Positions 22,853 to 63,413 of a DNA stretch of 64,000 nt are shown here, in pieces (within the stretch, counting starts at the first letter, position 1; every line of letters starts with the position of its first letter). The position numbers and the translations under genes are program-made. Below the pieces are notes generated by a model, which did no database searches, was not told the origin of the DNA, and saw nothing but the letters and a program-made list of their open reading frames with translations. The DNA comes from Candidatus Edwardsbacteria bacterium (GTDB lineage: Bacteria; Edwardsbacteria; AC1; EtOH8): NCBI GenBank assembly GCA_018821925.1, contig JAHJLF010000016.1, positions 19,255 to 83,254 on the forward strand. The letters are read 5' to 3'.

Positions 22853-22881
22853 GTAGGGGAGGGTTTGAAACCCTCCTCTAC
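22853..22881 (+). repeat. CCCTCC/GGAGGG-type hairpin (GTAGGGGAGGGTTTGAAACCCTCCTCTAC), member of the mosaic intergenic repeat family
   Basis: 14-bp arms with one mismatch, in the TldD promoter region. Confidence 0.5.
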
Positions 22882-23110
22882 AGTATTTATAACATTCATG
22901 CCATCTATGTTTTCCCAACGACGGGTAGGGGTGGGGTCGTTACCCTGTGAATTTTCACATTACAACAATAAAGCCCTGTGCTTTCGTGGTTTTTGATATT
23001 TCACTTATGAACTCCTCCATCTCATGCCCCTGTCTGGCATTAATATCTATTTAAGCATAATATTGAATGAGATTCAACCAAAATGTTCTTGCTTGGCATA
23101 GCGTCCCCAT

Positions 23111-23140
23111 AAAAAAACCCCGCGCAAGGCGGGGGTTTCT
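23111..23140 (-). terminator. Intrinsic terminator for the lipoprotein gene (CCCCGCC-TTGC-GCGGGG plus T7 on the minus strand)
   Basis: Hairpin followed by TTTTTTT when read on the minus strand. Confidence 0.7.
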
Positions 23141-23158
23141 CCCTTTAAAAAAGGCAGG

Positions 23159-23797
23159 TTATTTCTGAACCACCGGACTCATTAAGCTGGCCTTGATCTT
23201 GGCGGCCAGGCTCTGCATCTTGGTCCCGATGTTGACCGCGCCCAAAAAGTCTCCGGACTTACATGCTTCCTTGGCCTTGGCCAGAGAAGCTTCCATCCCT
23301 TTGACATCGGTCTTGGCTGCCGCGATGGCGGCCTGGTCCGCGCCTCGGGCCGAAGCAATGGCGGCCTTGGTCTCGGTGATCAGCTTGGGCAGGCTGGCGG
23401 CCATGCCCTCCCATATCTTGGGCAGTTCGGCCTTGCGGGATTCGACGGCAACGGCCAGGTCCTTGACCTTGAGTGGCAGATCCTTGGCTCCGTCCAGGGC
23501 GGCCTTGTAATCGCCCTTCTCGAACAGGCTCCTGGCTTCGGCCAGGGCTGTCTCCACAGAGGCCAGCTGATCCGGCACATATTTCTGAGCTTCAATGCTG
23601 ACGGCCTTTAAAGCCTCCTCGGCGGTTTTGATGGCCAGCTGAGCCGGGGTCTTGCTAAGACTGCAGGCCGCGAACAGCAAGGCGACACAACAGAGGACCG
23701 GACGGATCTTCTTCATGGTCTTTTCCTTAGTTATTGGTTTATGGTTATGGTTGTTTGCTGGAATAAGCAGTCTATACCTGCCGGAATAAGAAGTCAA
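23159..23797 (-). CDS. Ala-rich coiled-coil lipoprotein (hypothetical)
   Basis: Lipobox LLFAAC. Alanine/lysine-rich heptad-like sequence. Confidence 0.55.
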   Translation of the reverse strand: MTSYSGRYRLLIPANNHNHKPITKEKTMKKIRPVLCCVALLFAACSLSKTPAQLAIKTAEEALKAVSIEAQKYVPDQLASVETALAEARSLFEKGDYKAALDGAKDLPLKVKDLAVAVESRKAELPKIWEGMAASLPKLITETKAAIASARGADQAAIAAAKTDVKGMEASLAKAKEACKSGDFLGAVNIGTKMQSLAAKIKASLMSPVVQK

Positions 23798-23844
23798 GAG
23801 ATAATTTAAAAAATATTTCCCTTATCGCATTCCTAAGACGGCTC

Positions 23845-23884
23845 TGAGAAAAACACAAAAGCCTCGTGCTTACGAGGCTTTTAA
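23845..23884 (-). terminator. Intrinsic terminator after gatD
   Basis: AGCCTCGTAAGCACGAGGCT hairpin followed by TTTTGTGTTTTT on the minus strand. Confidence 0.6.
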
Positions 23885-23890
23885 TATTTT

Positions 23891-61062: not shown

Positions 61063-61098
61063 AGGTCCGTACCCAGCCATCCAACATAGGAGCCGAAG

Positions 61099-61878
61099 AT
61101 GAATTCCATTTTCCTGCTGGCAGCCCTCTCCCTGCTGGGCCTCTACGGCGAGCCCCACCTGACCCTGGAGTTGGCTGGCCCGGCGGCGGCCGATGCCGCC
61201 GGCAAACGGGTGCTGTTCTTCGCCTTCGTCCAGGTGCACCGCCCGGCCAAGGGCCTGGCGGCCTTTCCCGACGGCGGCCGCCCCAAGGTCCTCTACAAGA
61301 ATGTCTCGCTCTACCAGATGGATATCGCTGACGGCGCCTTGAAAAGGCTTTACGACTTCGGCCCCCTGCCGCTGGCCAGATCCGCCTGGAACTGCCGGGC
61401 CTTTTATGAGGGAGATTCGGTGCGGTTTAACCTGGAGCCCGTCAGCGGCTGGCAGCAGAATCTCAAGTGGAAACGGGTGGATACGGCTTCATACCAAAAA
61501 TATCATACCTGGTTTGTCATTGATCCAGCCACCGGCCTGGCCTCCCCGACCGAACCGGCCGGCAACGCCCCAAAAGTCGGCCCCGGCTTTCCCTTAAGCC
61601 GGATCAAACAGCTGGCAGAAAACATCGCCTGGAGACAGTGGGGCATCGAGCTGGACAGCATCTGCCCGGCCGGCAAAAAGGAGCGGATCGGCCAACTGAC
61701 CGGACTGAAGGGAAACCAGAACTACCGGGATGCCCTGGTCGAGCAGTTTTACGGCCGGCTGGAGAAGAATGGGGCCCGGAAGATCGTTTCCAAAATCCGG
61801 AAAGACCGGCCGGGATCGCTGGCGGCCAAAGAGACCGTCGACAAACTGCGAAAAATCTTTCTGTTGGAGGACGAATGA
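61099..61878 (+). CDS. Hypothetical secreted protein (259 aa)
   Basis: N-terminal hydrophobic signal-like segment. No motif recognised. First gene of the repeat-flanked cassette. Confidence 0.5.
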   Translation: MNSIFLLAALSLLGLYGEPHLTLELAGPAAADAAGKRVLFFAFVQVHRPAKGLAAFPDGGRPKVLYKNVSLYQMDIADGALKRLYDFGPLPLARSAWNCRAFYEGDSVRFNLEPVSGWQQNLKWKRVDTASYQKYHTWFVIDPATGLASPTEPAGNAPKVGPGFPLSRIKQLAENIAWRQWGIELDSICPAGKKERIGQLTGLKGNQNYRDALVEQFYGRLEKNGARKIVSKIRKDRPGSLAAKETVDKLRKIFLLEDE

Positions 61879-62909
61879 TCTTTAGATTGTTCCTGGCCCT
61901 CCTGTCCCTGACGGCCGCAACGGCTTTGGCCCAGGACTGGGTGGAGATCGTCCTGAGCGGATCGGAAGGCCAATATCATAACGCCAGCTCCCAGCTGGGC
62001 GCCAGCGAGGGCTGGGAGGTGACGGAGGCCAGCCAAAAGTACTCGACGGCAAACCTGGTCGACTGGGACTTCTCCACCACCTGGGCCGAGGGCGACCCGG
62101 GGGATGGCACCGGCCAAACGGTGTGGATAGCGATCCCGCGGGACTGCCGGACCTTCAATATTTTTTCCGGCTACGGCAAAAGCCGGGACCTTTACCTGAA
62201 GAACAACCGGCCCAAGCGGATCAAGCTTTCCTGCTATGCCGGGGTCAGCCCGCCGGGCTATGTGACCGAGATCGCCCGGTGCTTCCGGGCCCTAAAATAC
62301 CCCGGCGATTTTTATTTTGACCTGAAGGATACCTTCGGCCTGCAGAGTTTTCCCTTTCCGGCAGCCTACCAAGACCTGGAGGATCTCCTGCACAAGGTCC
62401 AGGCAGGCTCCCGCCCGATCGACAGCCTGACGCCGGACCCGTCCTGCCTGATCCTGCGTCTGGACATAGCCGAAGTGTACCGGGGCACCAAATGGAACGA
62501 CGCCTGCATCTCGGAGGTTTTCTTCGGCAGCATTTACGTAGCGGACGACAGCCGCCCCGGATATGCCGGGGCCAAAAATATCCGGGTGGACCCAAAAAAC
62601 GAGGGCCGGATACTGGCCAACCTGCCGGGGAAAAAGAATGTGGTGATCTATAGCGACCCCGGTTATGTGCTGGGCCTGGCCGAGATCTCGGCCAGCCTGC
62701 GCTGGGCCACCGTCATGAGGATGGATGCCGGGCCCGGAGCGGGCCGCCGGCAGACCGAATGGCTGCTGCTCGACATTCCGAACGGAAAAGTAGTAAACCG
62801 GGAATTTGAAAAAGCCACCGGAATTTCCCTGGACGGCCCCTTCTTCCTGGTGACCAAGGGAGGCCGGCTGATCCTGGATGTCTCCTCAATAGAGATAACC
62901 CTTTATTGA
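61875..62909 (+). CDS. Hypothetical secreted protein with discoidin/galactose-binding-like N-terminal domain
   Basis: Signal peptide MIFRLFLALLSLTAATALA. DWDFSTTWAEGDPGDGTGQTVWI and WNDACISEVFF segments. ATGA overlap with the upstream gene. Confidence 0.5.
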   Translation: MIFRLFLALLSLTAATALAQDWVEIVLSGSEGQYHNASSQLGASEGWEVTEASQKYSTANLVDWDFSTTWAEGDPGDGTGQTVWIAIPRDCRTFNIFSGYGKSRDLYLKNNRPKRIKLSCYAGVSPPGYVTEIARCFRALKYPGDFYFDLKDTFGLQSFPFPAAYQDLEDLLHKVQAGSRPIDSLTPDPSCLILRLDIAEVYRGTKWNDACISEVFFGSIYVADDSRPGYAGAKNIRVDPKNEGRILANLPGKKNVVIYSDPGYVLGLAEISASLRWATVMRMDAGPGAGRRQTEWLLLDIPNGKVVNREFEKATGISLDGPFFLVTKGGRLILDVSSIEITLY

Positions 62910-62926
62910 TCCAACCTCTAAATATA

Positions 62927-62968
62927 TTGCTGCAAACGAAAGTGGGCAGGGTGCCTGCACTGAGGTTG
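62927..62968 (+). repeat. Composite repeat E: ATTGCTGCAAACGAAAGTGGGCAGGG followed by GCCTGCACTGAG
   Basis: Same two modules as repeat D. Direct repeats bracket the 61099-62909 cassette. Confidence 0.6.
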
Positions 62969-63067
62969 ACCATTTGTAAATCTTTCGAAGTGTTAGGTCA
63001 TAACCGTAAGGGCAATTCATGAATTGCCCCAACAATGAATATGAACAACCATTACATGGAGGAAAAA

Positions 63068-63360
63068 TGAAACACCGCAACGCCTTGTTCGCCGTTATCC
63101 TGTTCATCGCCCTGGCCACCCTGGCCGGCTGCATCCCCGGCGACGGCGCCAATACCGCCCAGAGACCGGCCGGATTTTTCTGGGGCATCTGGCACGGCTG
63201 GGTGGCCCCCTTTTCGCTGATCATCAGCATATTCAAAAAGCACATCCATCTGTACGAGGTCTTCAACAACGGCTGGCTGTACGATTTCGGGTTCTACATC
63301 GCGATCATCAGCGGCTTCGGCGGGCTGTCGCTGTTCCGCCACAAGAAATCGTGTAAATAG
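63068..63360 (+). CDS. Small lipoprotein / membrane protein (97 aa)
   Basis: GGAGGA RBS. Lipobox LAGC. A hydrophobic helix. Confidence 0.45.
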
Positions 63361-63413
63361 CACCACCCCTCCGTCCCCTCCTTGATCAAGGAGGGGATTA
63401 AAGGGGTGGTCTA
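63361..63413 (+). repeat. Repeat C: CCCCTCCTTGATCAAGGAGGGG hairpin plus ATTAAAGGGGTGGTCTA tail
   Basis: Same hairpin as copy A. Same 5' flank and 3' tail as copy B. Confidence 0.6.

Follow-up and report, generated by a model that had tools for sequence, protein, structure and literature searches.

Triplex-motif DNA repeats in a Candidatus Edwardsbacteria genome and their association with DUF559 endonuclease genes

The window, by which we mean the whole 64,000-nucleotide stretch of a Candidatus Edwardsbacteria genome analysed here, carries a set of G-rich and C-rich repeat elements between its genes. A first-pass annotation had placed a CCCCTCC/GGAGGGG hairpin at nine sites. All nine were read, and a C-rich arm followed, after a loop, by its G-rich complement was found at seven (arm spans 25314-25363, 30208-30247, 31110-31142, 33100-33170, 54758-54796, 60960-60980 and 63362-63413) and not at 22853 and 62927. 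Between gatE and gatD lies a type II element of four segments (25314..25363, no strand assigned; ACCTCACCC-tt-CCCTCTCC-taaagcatta-GGAGAGGG-gta-GGGGAGAGGT), a triplex motif readable on either strand, whose end overlaps the gatE stop codon. A three-segment type II element (30208..30247, plus strand; CCCTCTCC-aaaagcattt-GGAGAGGG-tc-GGGGTGAGGTCA) is flanked by a DHH-family gene ending at 30104 and an NAD kinase gene starting at 30261. The type I element at 31110..31142 (minus strand) is of the 'right-end' kind, reads ACCACCCaaa-CCCCTCCTTGATCAAGGAGGGG on the plus strand and adjoins 31097-31109, which matches the last codons of a DUF559 gene in a sister strain. Two further type I elements, neither assigned a strand, have four segments: ACCACCCC..CCCCTCC..GGAGGGG..GGGGCGGTCTA at 33100..33170, with an insert in its loop, and CACCACCCC-tccgt-CCCCTCCTTGATCAAGGAGGGG-attaaa-GGGGTGGTCTA at 63362..63413, between a stop codon (63358-63360) and a separate intrinsic terminator (~63415-63445). 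The variant element at 54758..54796 (plus strand; CCCCTCTCCGC-agc-GGGGAGGGG-aa-GGGGTGGGG) doubles as a perfect four-run G4 motif and sits in a leader, between arsR (minus strand, start ~54746) and the arsR operator palindrome. A composite at 60960..61067 (plus strand) comprises two hairpins, 60960-60980 (CCCCCTCC-cgtaa-GGAGGGGG) and 60990-61009 (CCCCTTCCC-tcac-GGGGAAG), an insert termed A and a tail, GGGCAGGGGTTAGGTC (61053-61067); the GNAT ORF upstream reads into the first hairpin.

At 62926..62999 (plus strand) only a 26-nt module and a GCCTGCACTGAG module were present, the site being a remnant that consists of the 3' half of insert A (ATTGCTGCAAACGAAAGTG), host GGCAGGG, a mini-element (version B) and host TTAGGTC. 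The hairpin at 22852..22882 (TGTAGGGGAGGG-tttgaa-ACCCTCCTCTACA, no strand assigned) is similar in composition but has its purine arm first and no adjacent third segment, a G-run lying 40 nt off at 22923-22937, and its membership of the family is doubtful.

The elements share one plan: a C-rich arm (Y), a loop, the complementary G-rich arm (R) and, after a spacer of 2-6 nt, a third segment (H), again G-rich and the mirror image of R: G faces G, and A faces A or T. Type I in the window is CCCCTCC-TTGATCAA-GGAGGGG-..-GGGGYGGTCTA and type II is CCCTCTCC-wAAAGCATTw-GGAGAGGG-..-GGGGWGAGGTCA; four-segment copies hold the motif on both strands. The shared 3' tails described earlier are indeed there, as ATTAA(A)GGGGYGGTCTA at 33155 and 63397 and GGGG(A/T)GAGGTCA at 25354 and 30236, and such a tail repeats the G-rich arm in mirror order: the type I tail GGGGTGG(T) mirrors (A)GGAGGGG, where a direct repeat would read otherwise. 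The heptamer CCCCTCC by itself is not enriched in the window (11 matches, 18.7 expected). When we scanned for an arm, its complementary arm and a mirror-repeat third segment (class II hits), the composite architecture gave 10 hits at 7 sites, compared with 0.77 +/- 0.95 (maximum 4) in 100 dinucleotide shuffles, and site 33100 was also recovered once a longer loop was permitted. Many more copies were found outside the window, with related motifs of nearly constant sequence in most bacterial phyla. In a set of 143 distinct hits from across the phyla, which form H takes (GGGGnGA or GGGGnGG) can be predicted from the variable base of R (GGAGAGG or GGAGGGG; counts 91/6/7/39, Fisher p = 1.6e-21). 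Opposite the A, H has T in 99 hits, A in 39, G in 4 and C in 1. Neither result was forced by the search pattern.

The modules reported within and beside these elements are real, with three exact copies of GCCTGCACTGAG (0.25 expected) and two of the 26-mer (0 expected). What had appeared as shuffled modules is a second small insert, GCCTGCACTGAG...CGAA(A)GTG, in loops of the first element. Its version C (33121..33144, plus strand; GCCTGCACTGAG-cctg-TCGAAGTG) sits in loop 1 of the type I element at 33100..33170, as proposed, and an orthologous empty site exists in the sister strain L003 (13292-13325). Version A, or insert A (61011..61052, plus strand; GCCTGCACTGAG-ttaagcaacttattgctgcaaa-CGAAAGTG), is missing from a paralogue of its host element in L246 (12602-12635), and version B (62953-62992; GCCTGCACTGAG..TCGAAGTG) lies inside the remnant. 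The 'swapped order' of modules comes from two inserts, the first of them partly deleted and the second lying after it, and shuffling is rejected. The element loops tolerate foreign DNA, and three entries of this 24-43 nt second element into loops in the window produce the mosaic look.

The family had been thought uncatalogued, which proved wrong: the core motif is that of BoxC / PIT / TM_ECO / HPGQ (PMC4666352, PMC5100583). Since a mirror copy of the G-rich arm is the defining rule of BoxC, PIT and TM_ECO elements (Hoyne 2000; Holder 2015, PMC4666352), the window elements are very probably local subfamilies of this class of intergenic DNA repeats. BoxC, PIT and TM_ECO are one and the same: intergenic, of no known function and located in regions variable between strains, the surroundings of TM_ECO being more variable than control regions (PMC4666352). 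As single-stranded DNA, TM_ECO forms an intrastrand triplex in vitro by CD and NMR; the purine-motif triplex of the mirror rule forms in DNA and not in RNA, and Holder et al. found no triplex footprint in vivo (PMC4666352).

These properties bear on whether the elements might be cis-acting structured RNAs, acting either at the 3' end, as hairpins that stabilise mRNA or resemble terminators, or on translation, by sequestering a Shine-Dalgarno-like GGAGG. Both strands do fold far better than shuffles (z down to -7.7), some copies lie directly upstream of start codons, and a gene call in L003 begins 6 nt after GGAGGGG. REP elements, moreover, stabilise upstream mRNA. Nevertheless, the RNA reading was not borne out and we consider it improbable: Rfam gave no match even at E <= 10, copies occur in both orientations relative to flanking genes (upstream, downstream and inside operons), the element at 63362 is followed by a terminator of its own, Watson-Crick covariation is lacking between the outer arms (4-5/12 copies compatible), the conserved unpaired tail obeys a mirror rule that has no meaning for RNA pairing, and PIT elements showed neither promoter nor terminator activity in E. 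coli. The suggested masking of a Shine-Dalgarno-like sequence is weak, as AAGGAGGGG (31134-31142) precedes a 4-codon mini-ORF; the downstream gene really starts at 31173, ~30 nt on, with its own GAGGA.

Comparison with related Candidatus Edwardsbacteria-like MAGs (L003, L004, L005, L184, L246 and L247) revealed differences in presence/absence, replacement and nested insertion. The element at 30208..30247 survives in degraded form in L004 and L005, and L003 has other repeat families there; that at 54758 is kept in L246, and L247 has a different, SRM-like hairpin at this arsR spot. At 63361 the window has type I where L247 has type II, and at 60961 a relative has a clean type I element in place of the composite. 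The gatE-gatD spot is occupied by a 23S-IVP gene in L005 and by another small gene in L004. SRM-like repeats (GGATTCCCG..CGGGAATGAC) replace window-type elements at some spots in relatives. With these strain differences and the many further copies elsewhere, the idea of a true dispersed, modular, REP/MITE-like family has held up. Mobilisation of REP/REPIN repeats by a RAYT (an IS200/IS605-like Y1 transposase), or of conventional MITEs by a DDE transposon, would fit short dispersed intergenic palindromes in BIME-like mosaics, and site 22852 is bounded by GTAG...CTAC. Such an origin is very improbable all the same, as neither a Y1 nor a DDE transposase domain was present in any of the ~60 window proteins scanned, a conserved GTAG-type head is missing from the true family members, target-site duplications were not seen at the filled and empty sites compared, and REP/RAYT pairs are species-specific whereas the window motif is nearly the same across phyla.

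The 64-kb window holds no DUF559 gene. At the site corresponding to 31121, L003 and L184 carry a gene for a DUF559 (Vsr-like) endonuclease with one repeat copy on either side, the two being inverted, and the window element 31110..31142 is the counterpart of the downstream repeat of this cassette; L388, another Edwardsbacteria genome, has a DUF559 cassette whose left end is nearly identical in sequence to window 63375-63418. Searching loci picked by repeat DNA pattern only, tblastn with the L003 DUF559 protein recovered 15 more DUF559 genes from Planctomycetota, Bacteroidota, Verrucomicrobiota and Alpha-, Beta- and Gammaproteobacteria, most of which have the local repeat variant on both sides in inverted orientation. 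Control queries (GIY-YIG and 23S-IVP) had no matches in the same repeat-chosen loci. Unbiased clustering of repeat-adjacent ORFs returned DUF559 as the sole recurrent family (9 loci versus 3 for the next cluster). Reciprocally, a repeat lay within ~200 nt of 19/19 DUF559 genes picked by protein similarity alone, E. coli ycjD included. A repeat at this distance was found in 14/14 genera of the plasmid set (9 called by algorithm and 5 by eye) and for 4/4 metagenomic/genomic homologues (all four by eye); at least 11 of these have inverted repeats on both sides, the flanks called by eye having short all-G stems or a long loop 2. The pair of repeats around a DUF559 gene belongs to the variant of its own lineage; the two match each other in inverted orientation and turn H towards the gene. 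In 10/10 repeat-flanked proteins the nuclease motif D..ExDGxxH is unchanged, the closest PDB match is 3hrl ('endonuclease-like protein'), and YcjD is classed as Vsr-like PD-(D/E)XK. We judge the association highly likely to be real. Our literature search found no paper reporting it, published BoxC/PIT/TM_ECO work names no associated gene, and DUF559 may be the missing enzyme partner of the motif. Each exact DUF559 protein looked up stood in one genomic context across many samples, and nothing among these proteins pointed to recent transposition of the gene.

In E. coli K-12, ycjD has a degenerate repeat copy at its end, and TM_ECO no. 9 lies ~170 nt downstream on the same strand (chance probability ~0.005). 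Counts of TM_ECO per strain (Holder 2015, PMC4666352) are 19-30 in ycjD-carrying lineages versus 0-2 in strains that we assign to phylogroup B2. In the latter eefRABCD stands in place of ycjD, and the correlation of TM_ECO count with ycjD is confounded by phylogeny. TM variants occur in 3822 and 4605 of 5426 E. coli genomes, more than the 3378 that have ycjD (O157:H7 is an example of TM without ycjD), and therefore ycjD is not needed for repeat persistence.

Because DUF559 genes are bracketed in this way, the repeats look like solo cassette ends, comparable to REP/RAYT and NTS/Ssn. From the observed anatomy, mirror rule, enrichment, strain turnover and DUF559 association, we propose that the elements act as DNA, not RNA, and that an element, when single-stranded, would form an intrastrand triplex, a hairpin whose major groove takes up H. 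The window elements would be copies, solo or degraded, of the inverted repeats that bound a small selfish cassette, [Y-R-H] - DUF559 endonuclease gene - [H'-Y-R], whose Vsr-like nuclease may recognise the folded single-stranded repeat, the triplex being the presumed form, and nick beside it; nicking would then cause the repeats to spread, to be replaced and to rearrange locally, a role much like that of RAYT towards REP and of Ssn towards NTS. Taken whole, with PIT-class repeats as ends of a selfish DUF559 cassette spread by its nuclease, this is an account that we lean towards. That DUF559 causally maintains or spreads the repeats is a tentative part of it, which we put slightly below even, and DUF559 genes may instead home into pre-existing repeats.

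It is rather unlikely that the elements lack a dedicated enzyme and are unstable DNA motifs of a purely structural kind (the view of Holder 2015), at which a single-stranded triplex, hairpin or G4 stalls replication and leads to slippage, template switching and local rearrangement. DUF559 genes would then be selfish genes of the homing type that have a preference for such fragile sites or become trapped there. Triplex formation in vitro, the variable surroundings of TM_ECO, the other small genes (23S-IVP in L005 and the gene in L004) and repeat families (the SRM-like hairpin) at the same hot spots in relatives, the TM copies persisting in E. coli genomes without ycjD and the existence of Vsr-like homing endonucleases such as I-Bth0305I all fit this reading, but it leaves unexplained the matched inverted own-lineage variants with H facing the gene, DUF559 as the only family recurrently adjoining the repeats and the near-identical sequences across phyla.

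The three-segment plan is common to the window elements and BoxC / PIT (potential intrastrand triplex) / TM_ECO (Bachellier 1990s; Hoyne et al. 2000; PMC4666352), of which the HPGQ G4-hairpin-duplex switch (Kaplan 2016, PMC5100583) is a further description, and both are strictly intergenic, multi-copy and variable between close strains. However, no element in the window reaches the TM_ECO-grade consensus: stems are 7-8 nt rather than 9, type II (CCCTCTCC/GGAGAGGG/GGGGTGAGG) falls one base per arm short, and type I has another arm (CCCCTCC) and a fixed palindromic loop, TTGATCAA. Many window copies are nested four-segment palindromes with the motif on both strands, whereas TM_ECO forms two adjacent inverted copies; the foreign inserts in loops and the candidate-phylum host also set the window elements apart. 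In their nested insertion, the GCCTGCACTGAG...CGAAGTG inserts may resemble the small dispersed repeats (SDR) of cyanobacteria, which are reportedly ~20-40 nt long, nested in one another and without a known enzyme (Elhai et al. 2008); sequences and host differ. REP, BIME and REPIN with RAYT are likewise short intergenic palindromes in mosaic clusters, with a single-copy enzyme gene flanked by its own repeats and far outnumbered by solo copies, but they have a Y1 transposase and a GTAG head, both absent here, and REP is lineage-specific where our motif is near-constant across phyla. The Vsr-like (EDxHD) homing endonuclease I-Bth0305I (PMC3239194) shares its superfamily with DUF559 and is also a selfish, sporadic gene; it is intron-encoded, its DNA-binding region is long, and its target is not a dispersed repeat but a protein-coding gene. 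NTS/dRS3 (SRM) repeats with the GIY-YIG ssDNA nuclease SsnA (Chenal et al. 2025, PMC11893778) differ in repeat sequence and in nuclease fold (GIY-YIG versus the Vsr-like PD-(D/E)XK of DUF559); a triplex-type third segment is a feature of the DUF559 repeats, whose pairing with the nuclease is putative. The same order of repeat, small single-domain nuclease gene and inverted repeat is nevertheless found in both, together with hundreds of solo repeats, a cross-phylum association and an orientation set by a non-palindromic flank.

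Reading of the individual sites and a pattern scan found a pyrimidine arm, a loop and the complementary purine arm on the same strand at seven sites in the window (25314, 30208, 31110, 33100, 54758, 60960 and 63362). The first-pass annotation had placed such hairpins at nine sites; at the other two, the purine arm comes first, i.e. in reverse order (22852), or no CCCCTCC-type hairpin is found on reading (62926). The heptamer CCCCTCC itself is not over-represented in the window (11 occurrences vs 18.7 expected), so the hairpin stem alone proves nothing and the whole architecture had to be tested. 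The tails described earlier were present on site reading, and wherever a copy has a tail, that tail mirrors its purine arm: GGAGAGGG is paired with GGG(A/T)GAGG, and (A)AGGAGGGG with GGGG(T/C)GG(T). In type I copies (a CCCCTCC arm, GGAGGGG and a GGGGYGG tail), the tail GGGGTGG mirrors GGAGGGG and is not a direct repeat of it. The mirror-rule scanner looked for a 7-nt purine arm that is preceded by its complement and followed by a mirror segment, with G facing each G of the arm and A or T facing each A; one mismatch was tolerated in each. Ten matches at 7 sites were obtained in the window, vs 0.77 ± 0.95 in 100 dinucleotide shuffles, and site 33100 was also recovered once longer loops were allowed. 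At site 60960 the second loop is long and filled by an insert. Every element folds far better than its shuffled versions, whichever strand is taken, and true copies all lie between genes or overlap gene ends only. Uniform plus-strand tails were rejected, since the four-segment copies (motif on both strands) and the minus-oriented copy at 31110 give four plus, one minus and three on both strands. The masking of a Shine-Dalgarno (SD) sequence at 31134 proposed in the first pass does not hold, the true start of the gene being elsewhere. A four-codon mini-ORF (ATG AAA ATT TTA TGA; 31143-31172) begins 6 nt past the GGAGGGG of this hairpin, and its stop overlaps the SD of a lipoprotein gene starting at 31173.

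A literature search with sequence strings identified the motif as BoxC, equivalent to the PIT (potential intrastrand triplex) element and to TM_ECO, the name under which it was studied by Holder et al. 2015 (PMC4666352); Kaplan et al. 2016 described BoxC/PIT as a G-quadruplex/hairpin switch (PMC5100583). The earlier statement that the family had not been catalogued is therefore wrong for the core motif. TM_ECO has the consensus CCCTCNCCC N3-6 GGGNGAGGG N3 GGGNGAGGG, and 3610 strictly intergenic copies are reported across 262 proteobacterial genomes, with no promoter or terminator activity (PMC4666352, PMC5100583). E. coli TM_ECO oligonucleotides form a stable single-stranded DNA triplex in vitro by CD/NMR, and an in vivo footprint was looked for and none found (PMC4666352). 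The neighbourhoods of TM_ECO copies differ between strains, with no known function and no link to mobile elements found (PMC4666352). The repeats in our window depart from the TM_ECO consensus in having stems of 7-8 nt and a different type I arm; they are variants of the BoxC/PIT/TM class and not strict TM_ECO. Four runs of at least three G in the purine arm plus tail (the HPGQ criterion) occur in perfect form at 54775-54795 (GGGGAGGGGAAGGGGTGGGG); type I copies, and the type II copies close to TM_ECO, have just two runs of four G, plus GG pairs.

A loose-pattern scan of species-representative genomes returned at least 120 loci. The matches listed came from Planctomycetota, Bacteroidota, Ignavibacteriota, Chloroflexota, Cyanobacteriota, Verrucomicrobiota, Acidobacteriota, Nitrospirota, Desulfobacterota, Zixibacteria, Bacillota, Actinomycetota and the Alpha-, Beta- and Gammaproteobacteria. 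These cross-phylum matches are far more uniform than the search pattern demanded. Among 143 distinct matches, the matching tail base can be predicted from the variable base of the purine arm (91/6/7/39, Fisher p = 1.6e-21), and in 138 the A of the arm faces T or A in the tail; this arm-tail covariation across phyla is triplex-like (mirror-type). Among the matches listed from metagenomes, the type I core (loop content left free) was likewise present, in copies as modular as those of the window: second loops with extra hairpins, first loops with foreign inserts and some four-segment palindromes. The exact 22-mer had 0 matches in viral contigs; a claim of absence from phage-like contigs was dropped because the general motif matches viral contigs abundantly.

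The first-pass annotation had read the family either as mobile repeats or as structured RNAs. The first part stands, as dispersed modular DNA repeats; that the elements are a family of structured RNAs is very unlikely. No window element matched Rfam at the gathering threshold, with noise only at E <= 10, and copies occur within operons as well as upstream and downstream, pointing either with or against transcription. The inner helix was fixed by our search patterns, so covariation there is uninformative. In four-segment copies the outer arms are Watson-Crick compatible at the sole variable position in only 4-5 of 12 distinct copies, which is better explained by two independent tails, one on each strand, than by selection for an outer helix. 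Purine-motif triplexes, moreover, do not form in RNA (Holder 2015, PMC4666352).

Known DNA repeat classes were also considered. Pfam scans of about 60 window ORFs found no RAYT or DDE transposase and no Y1 (IS200/IS605-like) transposase domain, and the GTAG-type head is absent from family members. Membership of the NTS/SRM-Ssn family (CGTCATTCCCGCG..GCGGGAATC beside a small GIY-YIG gene) was rejected, as the sequence differs and a GIY-YIG query finds no adjoining gene; SRM-like repeats occur in two comparison loci, L003 and L247, as a separate family. Filled and empty sites showed no target-site duplication of the kind expected of MITEs, and a 6-nt CTGAAA repeat at the junction of a repeat-flanked gene cassette in L003 is ambiguous as a duplication. 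Another intergenic family, a TTGTCATCCT...AGGATGACAA hairpin, is present at 19256-19315 and 37770-37829 (70% identity over 60 nt), with related GTCATCCTGAG... and GGATTCCCGGTCAAGCCGGGAATGAC repeats at 9594-10010 of L003; the latter resemble Ssn-related motifs of Chenal et al. 2025 (PMC11893778).

The window proteins are closest to those of MAGs named Candidatus Edwardsbacteria. The Pfam scans identified ordinary housekeeping content: TldD/PmbA, GatD/GatE, RbfA, a DHH-family protein, NAD kinase, RecN, ClpB, ArsR/ACR3, SerRS-side genes and a GNAT gene. GatD (asparaginase-like, GatD_N domain) and GatE (23891-27330) form an archaeal-type Glu-tRNA(Gln) amidotransferase in a bacterial candidate-phylum genome; the pair is conserved in relatives, and the L003 genes look fragmented. 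A tandem duplication of an 87-nt unit (5072-5245, 90% identical) lies in or beside ORF 4829-5251, just upstream of clpB. Low-GC islands (8000-16000, 34000-38000, 46000-48000 and 58000-60000; GC 0.41-0.47 vs about 0.55) are probably acquired DNA; they carry a SocA/Panacea-HTH antitoxin-like gene, a pentapeptide-repeat protein, several ORFs without a Pfam match and an ORF6N-domain gene with 27-nt inverted repeats (35201-35267).

Comparison with relatives, at loci around orthologues of the NAD kinase gene (L003-L005) and of the GNAT gene (L246-L248) and at L184, revealed the presence/absence differences raised in the first-pass annotation, and replacements as well. At 33100, the type I element recurs in L003 without its 24-nt loop insert and is absent from L004 and L005. 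At 31110, L004 and L005 again have none, and in L003 and L184 a gene is flanked by two copies. Degraded copies occupy 30208 in L004 and L005, with other repeat families in L003, and an inserted small gene is found in L004 and L005 instead of the repeat at 25314. The 54758 element is present in L246; L247 carries an SRM-like hairpin instead, and its use as an 'empty site' for 54759 was rejected once the alignment showed this other repeat family. At 60960 L247 has a clean type I element. At 63362 the counterpart in L247 is a type II element with identical boundaries, and that in L246 is a third variant. The spots are hot, with members of the family taking one another's place.

Other changes were seen in the same regions. 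In L246 (12520-12640), a fragment of the GNAT 3' end and its adjoining repeat are duplicated 2 kb downstream of the original. L004 (9753-9944) and L005 (9695-9886) have an intact small Cys-rich ORF of 63 aa, of which the window retains only the C-terminal third (remnant at 30105-30199), with a type II repeat directly after it. Sporadic small genes fill intergenic spots of L004 and L005 where the window has repeats or nothing (L005 20032-20394, L005 4562-4930 and L004 1168-1584); downstream of recN there is a 120-aa GIY-YIG protein, the gatE-gatD interval has a four-helix protein like 23S-rRNA-IVP/bAvd with AT-rich inverted repeats of its own on either side, and the third is an unknown 138-aa protein.

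The modules described as shuffled in the first pass are real, GCCTGCACTGAG occurring three times exactly (vs 0.25 expected) and the 26-mer twice. At the 62926 spot, L246 holds a copy of the 60960 element without the stretch GCCTGCACTGAG...CGAAAGTG, which reveals three versions of a second mini-element in the window: A (61011-61052), B (62953-62992) and C (33121-33144). Each starts with GCCTGCACTGAG, ends with CGAA(A)GTG and sits in loop 1 or 2 of a triplex-motif element. The modules at 62926 had been described as being in swapped order; comparison with relatives resolves the order as the 3' half of A, host GGCAGGG, then B. Further copies occur in loci L137 and L248, one of those in L248 inside a second loop, and a related stretch is found in a Zixibacteria element (L107). 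By eye, a sigma-54 or ECF promoter reading of the 26-mer was rejected for misfitting spacing and key bases. In L137, inverted GCCTGCACTGAG...TCGAAGTG copies (966-1003 and 2203-2400) flank a 1.2-kb pair of HTH/XRE-like and ImmA/IrrE-like metallopeptidase-like ORFs, which hints at a gene partner for the mini-element also.

The gene at site 31110 in the sister strains L003 (96% NAD-kinase identity) and L184 encodes a 120-aa protein of DUF559, the Vsr-like endonuclease family that includes E. coli YcjD. It is flanked by CCCCTCCTTGAACAAGGAGGGGacagaaGGGGTGGTCTC upstream and an inverted ACCACCCCaaCCCCTCC..GGAGGGG downstream. The window lacks a DUF559 gene, as do L246-L248, and one is present in each of L003 and L184. 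Site 31110 of the window has kept the downstream copy, plus a stretch of about 10 nt that matches the DUF559 ORF at its end, and so looks like a cassette remnant, insertion beside a pre-existing copy being equally parsimonious. In another Edwardsbacteria genome (L388), the left end of a cassette is almost identical to window 63375-63418.

Following the Ssn/NTS paper (PMC11893778), we tested how general this link between DUF559 and the repeats is. A tblastn search with the 31110-site protein against loci selected by repeat pattern found 15 further DUF559 genes in many phyla; for most of them, the local repeat variant is present in one or two copies at a distance of 10-140 nt. The typical arrangement is Y-R-H, gene, H'-Y-R, with Y the C-rich arm, R the complementary G-rich arm, H the mirror segment and H' its inverse. 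Control queries with GIY-YIG and 23S-IVP proteins gave no matches in the same loci, and DUF559 was the sole recurrent family when all 1054 ORFs within 250 nt of repeats were clustered. In a reciprocal test, DUF559 genes were chosen by protein similarity only, from 14 genera of a plasmid collection plus four further homologues. A repeat lay within about 200 nt in 18 of 18, on both sides and inverted in at least 11; flanks were called by the scanner in 9 of the 14 plasmid genera and by eye in the rest (5-6-nt all-G cyanobacterial stems or a hairpin in loop 2). With E. coli ycjD included, the count is 19/19. Multi-copy DUF559 transposition was rejected, as two individual proteins (P0279 and P0329) occur on many contigs yet always in the same context. 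Bracketed by inverted repeats across lineages, this small nuclease gene forms an association apparently new to the literature, in which we found no paper under these names or sequences linking DUF559, ycjD or COG2852 to the repeats. Repeat-DUF559-repeat cassettes also sit inside operons, between the transhydrogenase alpha-subunit genes and pntB on a Sphingomonas parapaucimobilis plasmid (L377, 540-1010) and between addB and addA in Scalindua (L384).

The single DUF559 gene of E. coli K-12, ycjD, ends inside a degenerate repeat copy and is followed by a duplicated fragment of its own 3' end. TM_ECO no. 9 (Holder's Table 1) lies about 170 nt downstream of ycjD, a proximity with a chance of about 0.005 (23 copies in 4.64 Mb); the duplicated fragment between them parallels the GNAT duplication in L246. 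TM_ECO counts are 19-30 in K-12, B, HS, 55989, IAI1, W and similar strains and 0-2 in CFT073, UTI89, IHE3034, S88 and similar (Holder supplement, PMC4666352). An independent paper reports ycjD in phylogroups A, B1 and C, with eefRABCD in its place elsewhere. The counts fit the ycjD distribution, a correspondence that is confounded by phylogeny and not absolute.

We tentatively propose that BoxC/PIT/TM repeats are the cognate DNA of DUF559 endonucleases, a reading we hold to be a real possibility somewhat short of probable. The family is Vsr-like PD-(D/E)XK, and its conserved catalytic motif D..ExDGxxH is invariant in ten repeat-flanked proteins; the nuclease may bind or cut its cognate repeat. 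The enzyme would recognise the folded single-stranded repeat and nick nearby, with the mirror segment as an orienting or recognition determinant. Solo copies would arise from, or be spread by, DUF559 activity, as with RAYT/REP and Ssn/NTS, and the hairpins of the window would be solo cassette ends. Loops exposed in the folded form may serve as landing sites for the mini-element GCCTGCACTGAG...CGAAGTG. The main rival holds that the repeats are fragile sites independent of any enzyme, into which DUF559 genes merely home.

Taken alone, the repeats of the window are ordinary, being further members of a catalogued class in a poorly known phylum. The DUF559 association, apparently unreported and easily testable, lifts their interest above that of a routine repeat family. 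Known since the 1990s, BoxC/PIT/TM repeats abound in E. coli, Enterobacter, cyanobacteria and a wide range of other bacteria and are tied to local genome variability; they have been proposed as G4 or triplex targets, and for about 30 years no origin or partner protein has been known. Consistent bracketing of DUF559 genes, ycjD included, would supply a role for a large domain of unknown function, and through ycjD the question can be put to the test in a standard laboratory strain. On the practical side, the repeats create many spurious ORFs and extend real ones. The GNAT ORF (60424-60972) exceeds its homologues (169-177 aa) by 5-13 residues, since it is read into the 60960 hairpin, and E. coli YcjD and several other DUF559 proteins end in repeat-encoded ..SPSP or PPSQGG tails. 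REP/RAYT and NTS/Ssn are the earlier hairpin-repeat/nuclease systems that span phyla. BoxC/DUF559 would be the third, extending the Ssn/NTS concept of co-evolution between small single-domain nucleases and dispersed hairpin repeats.
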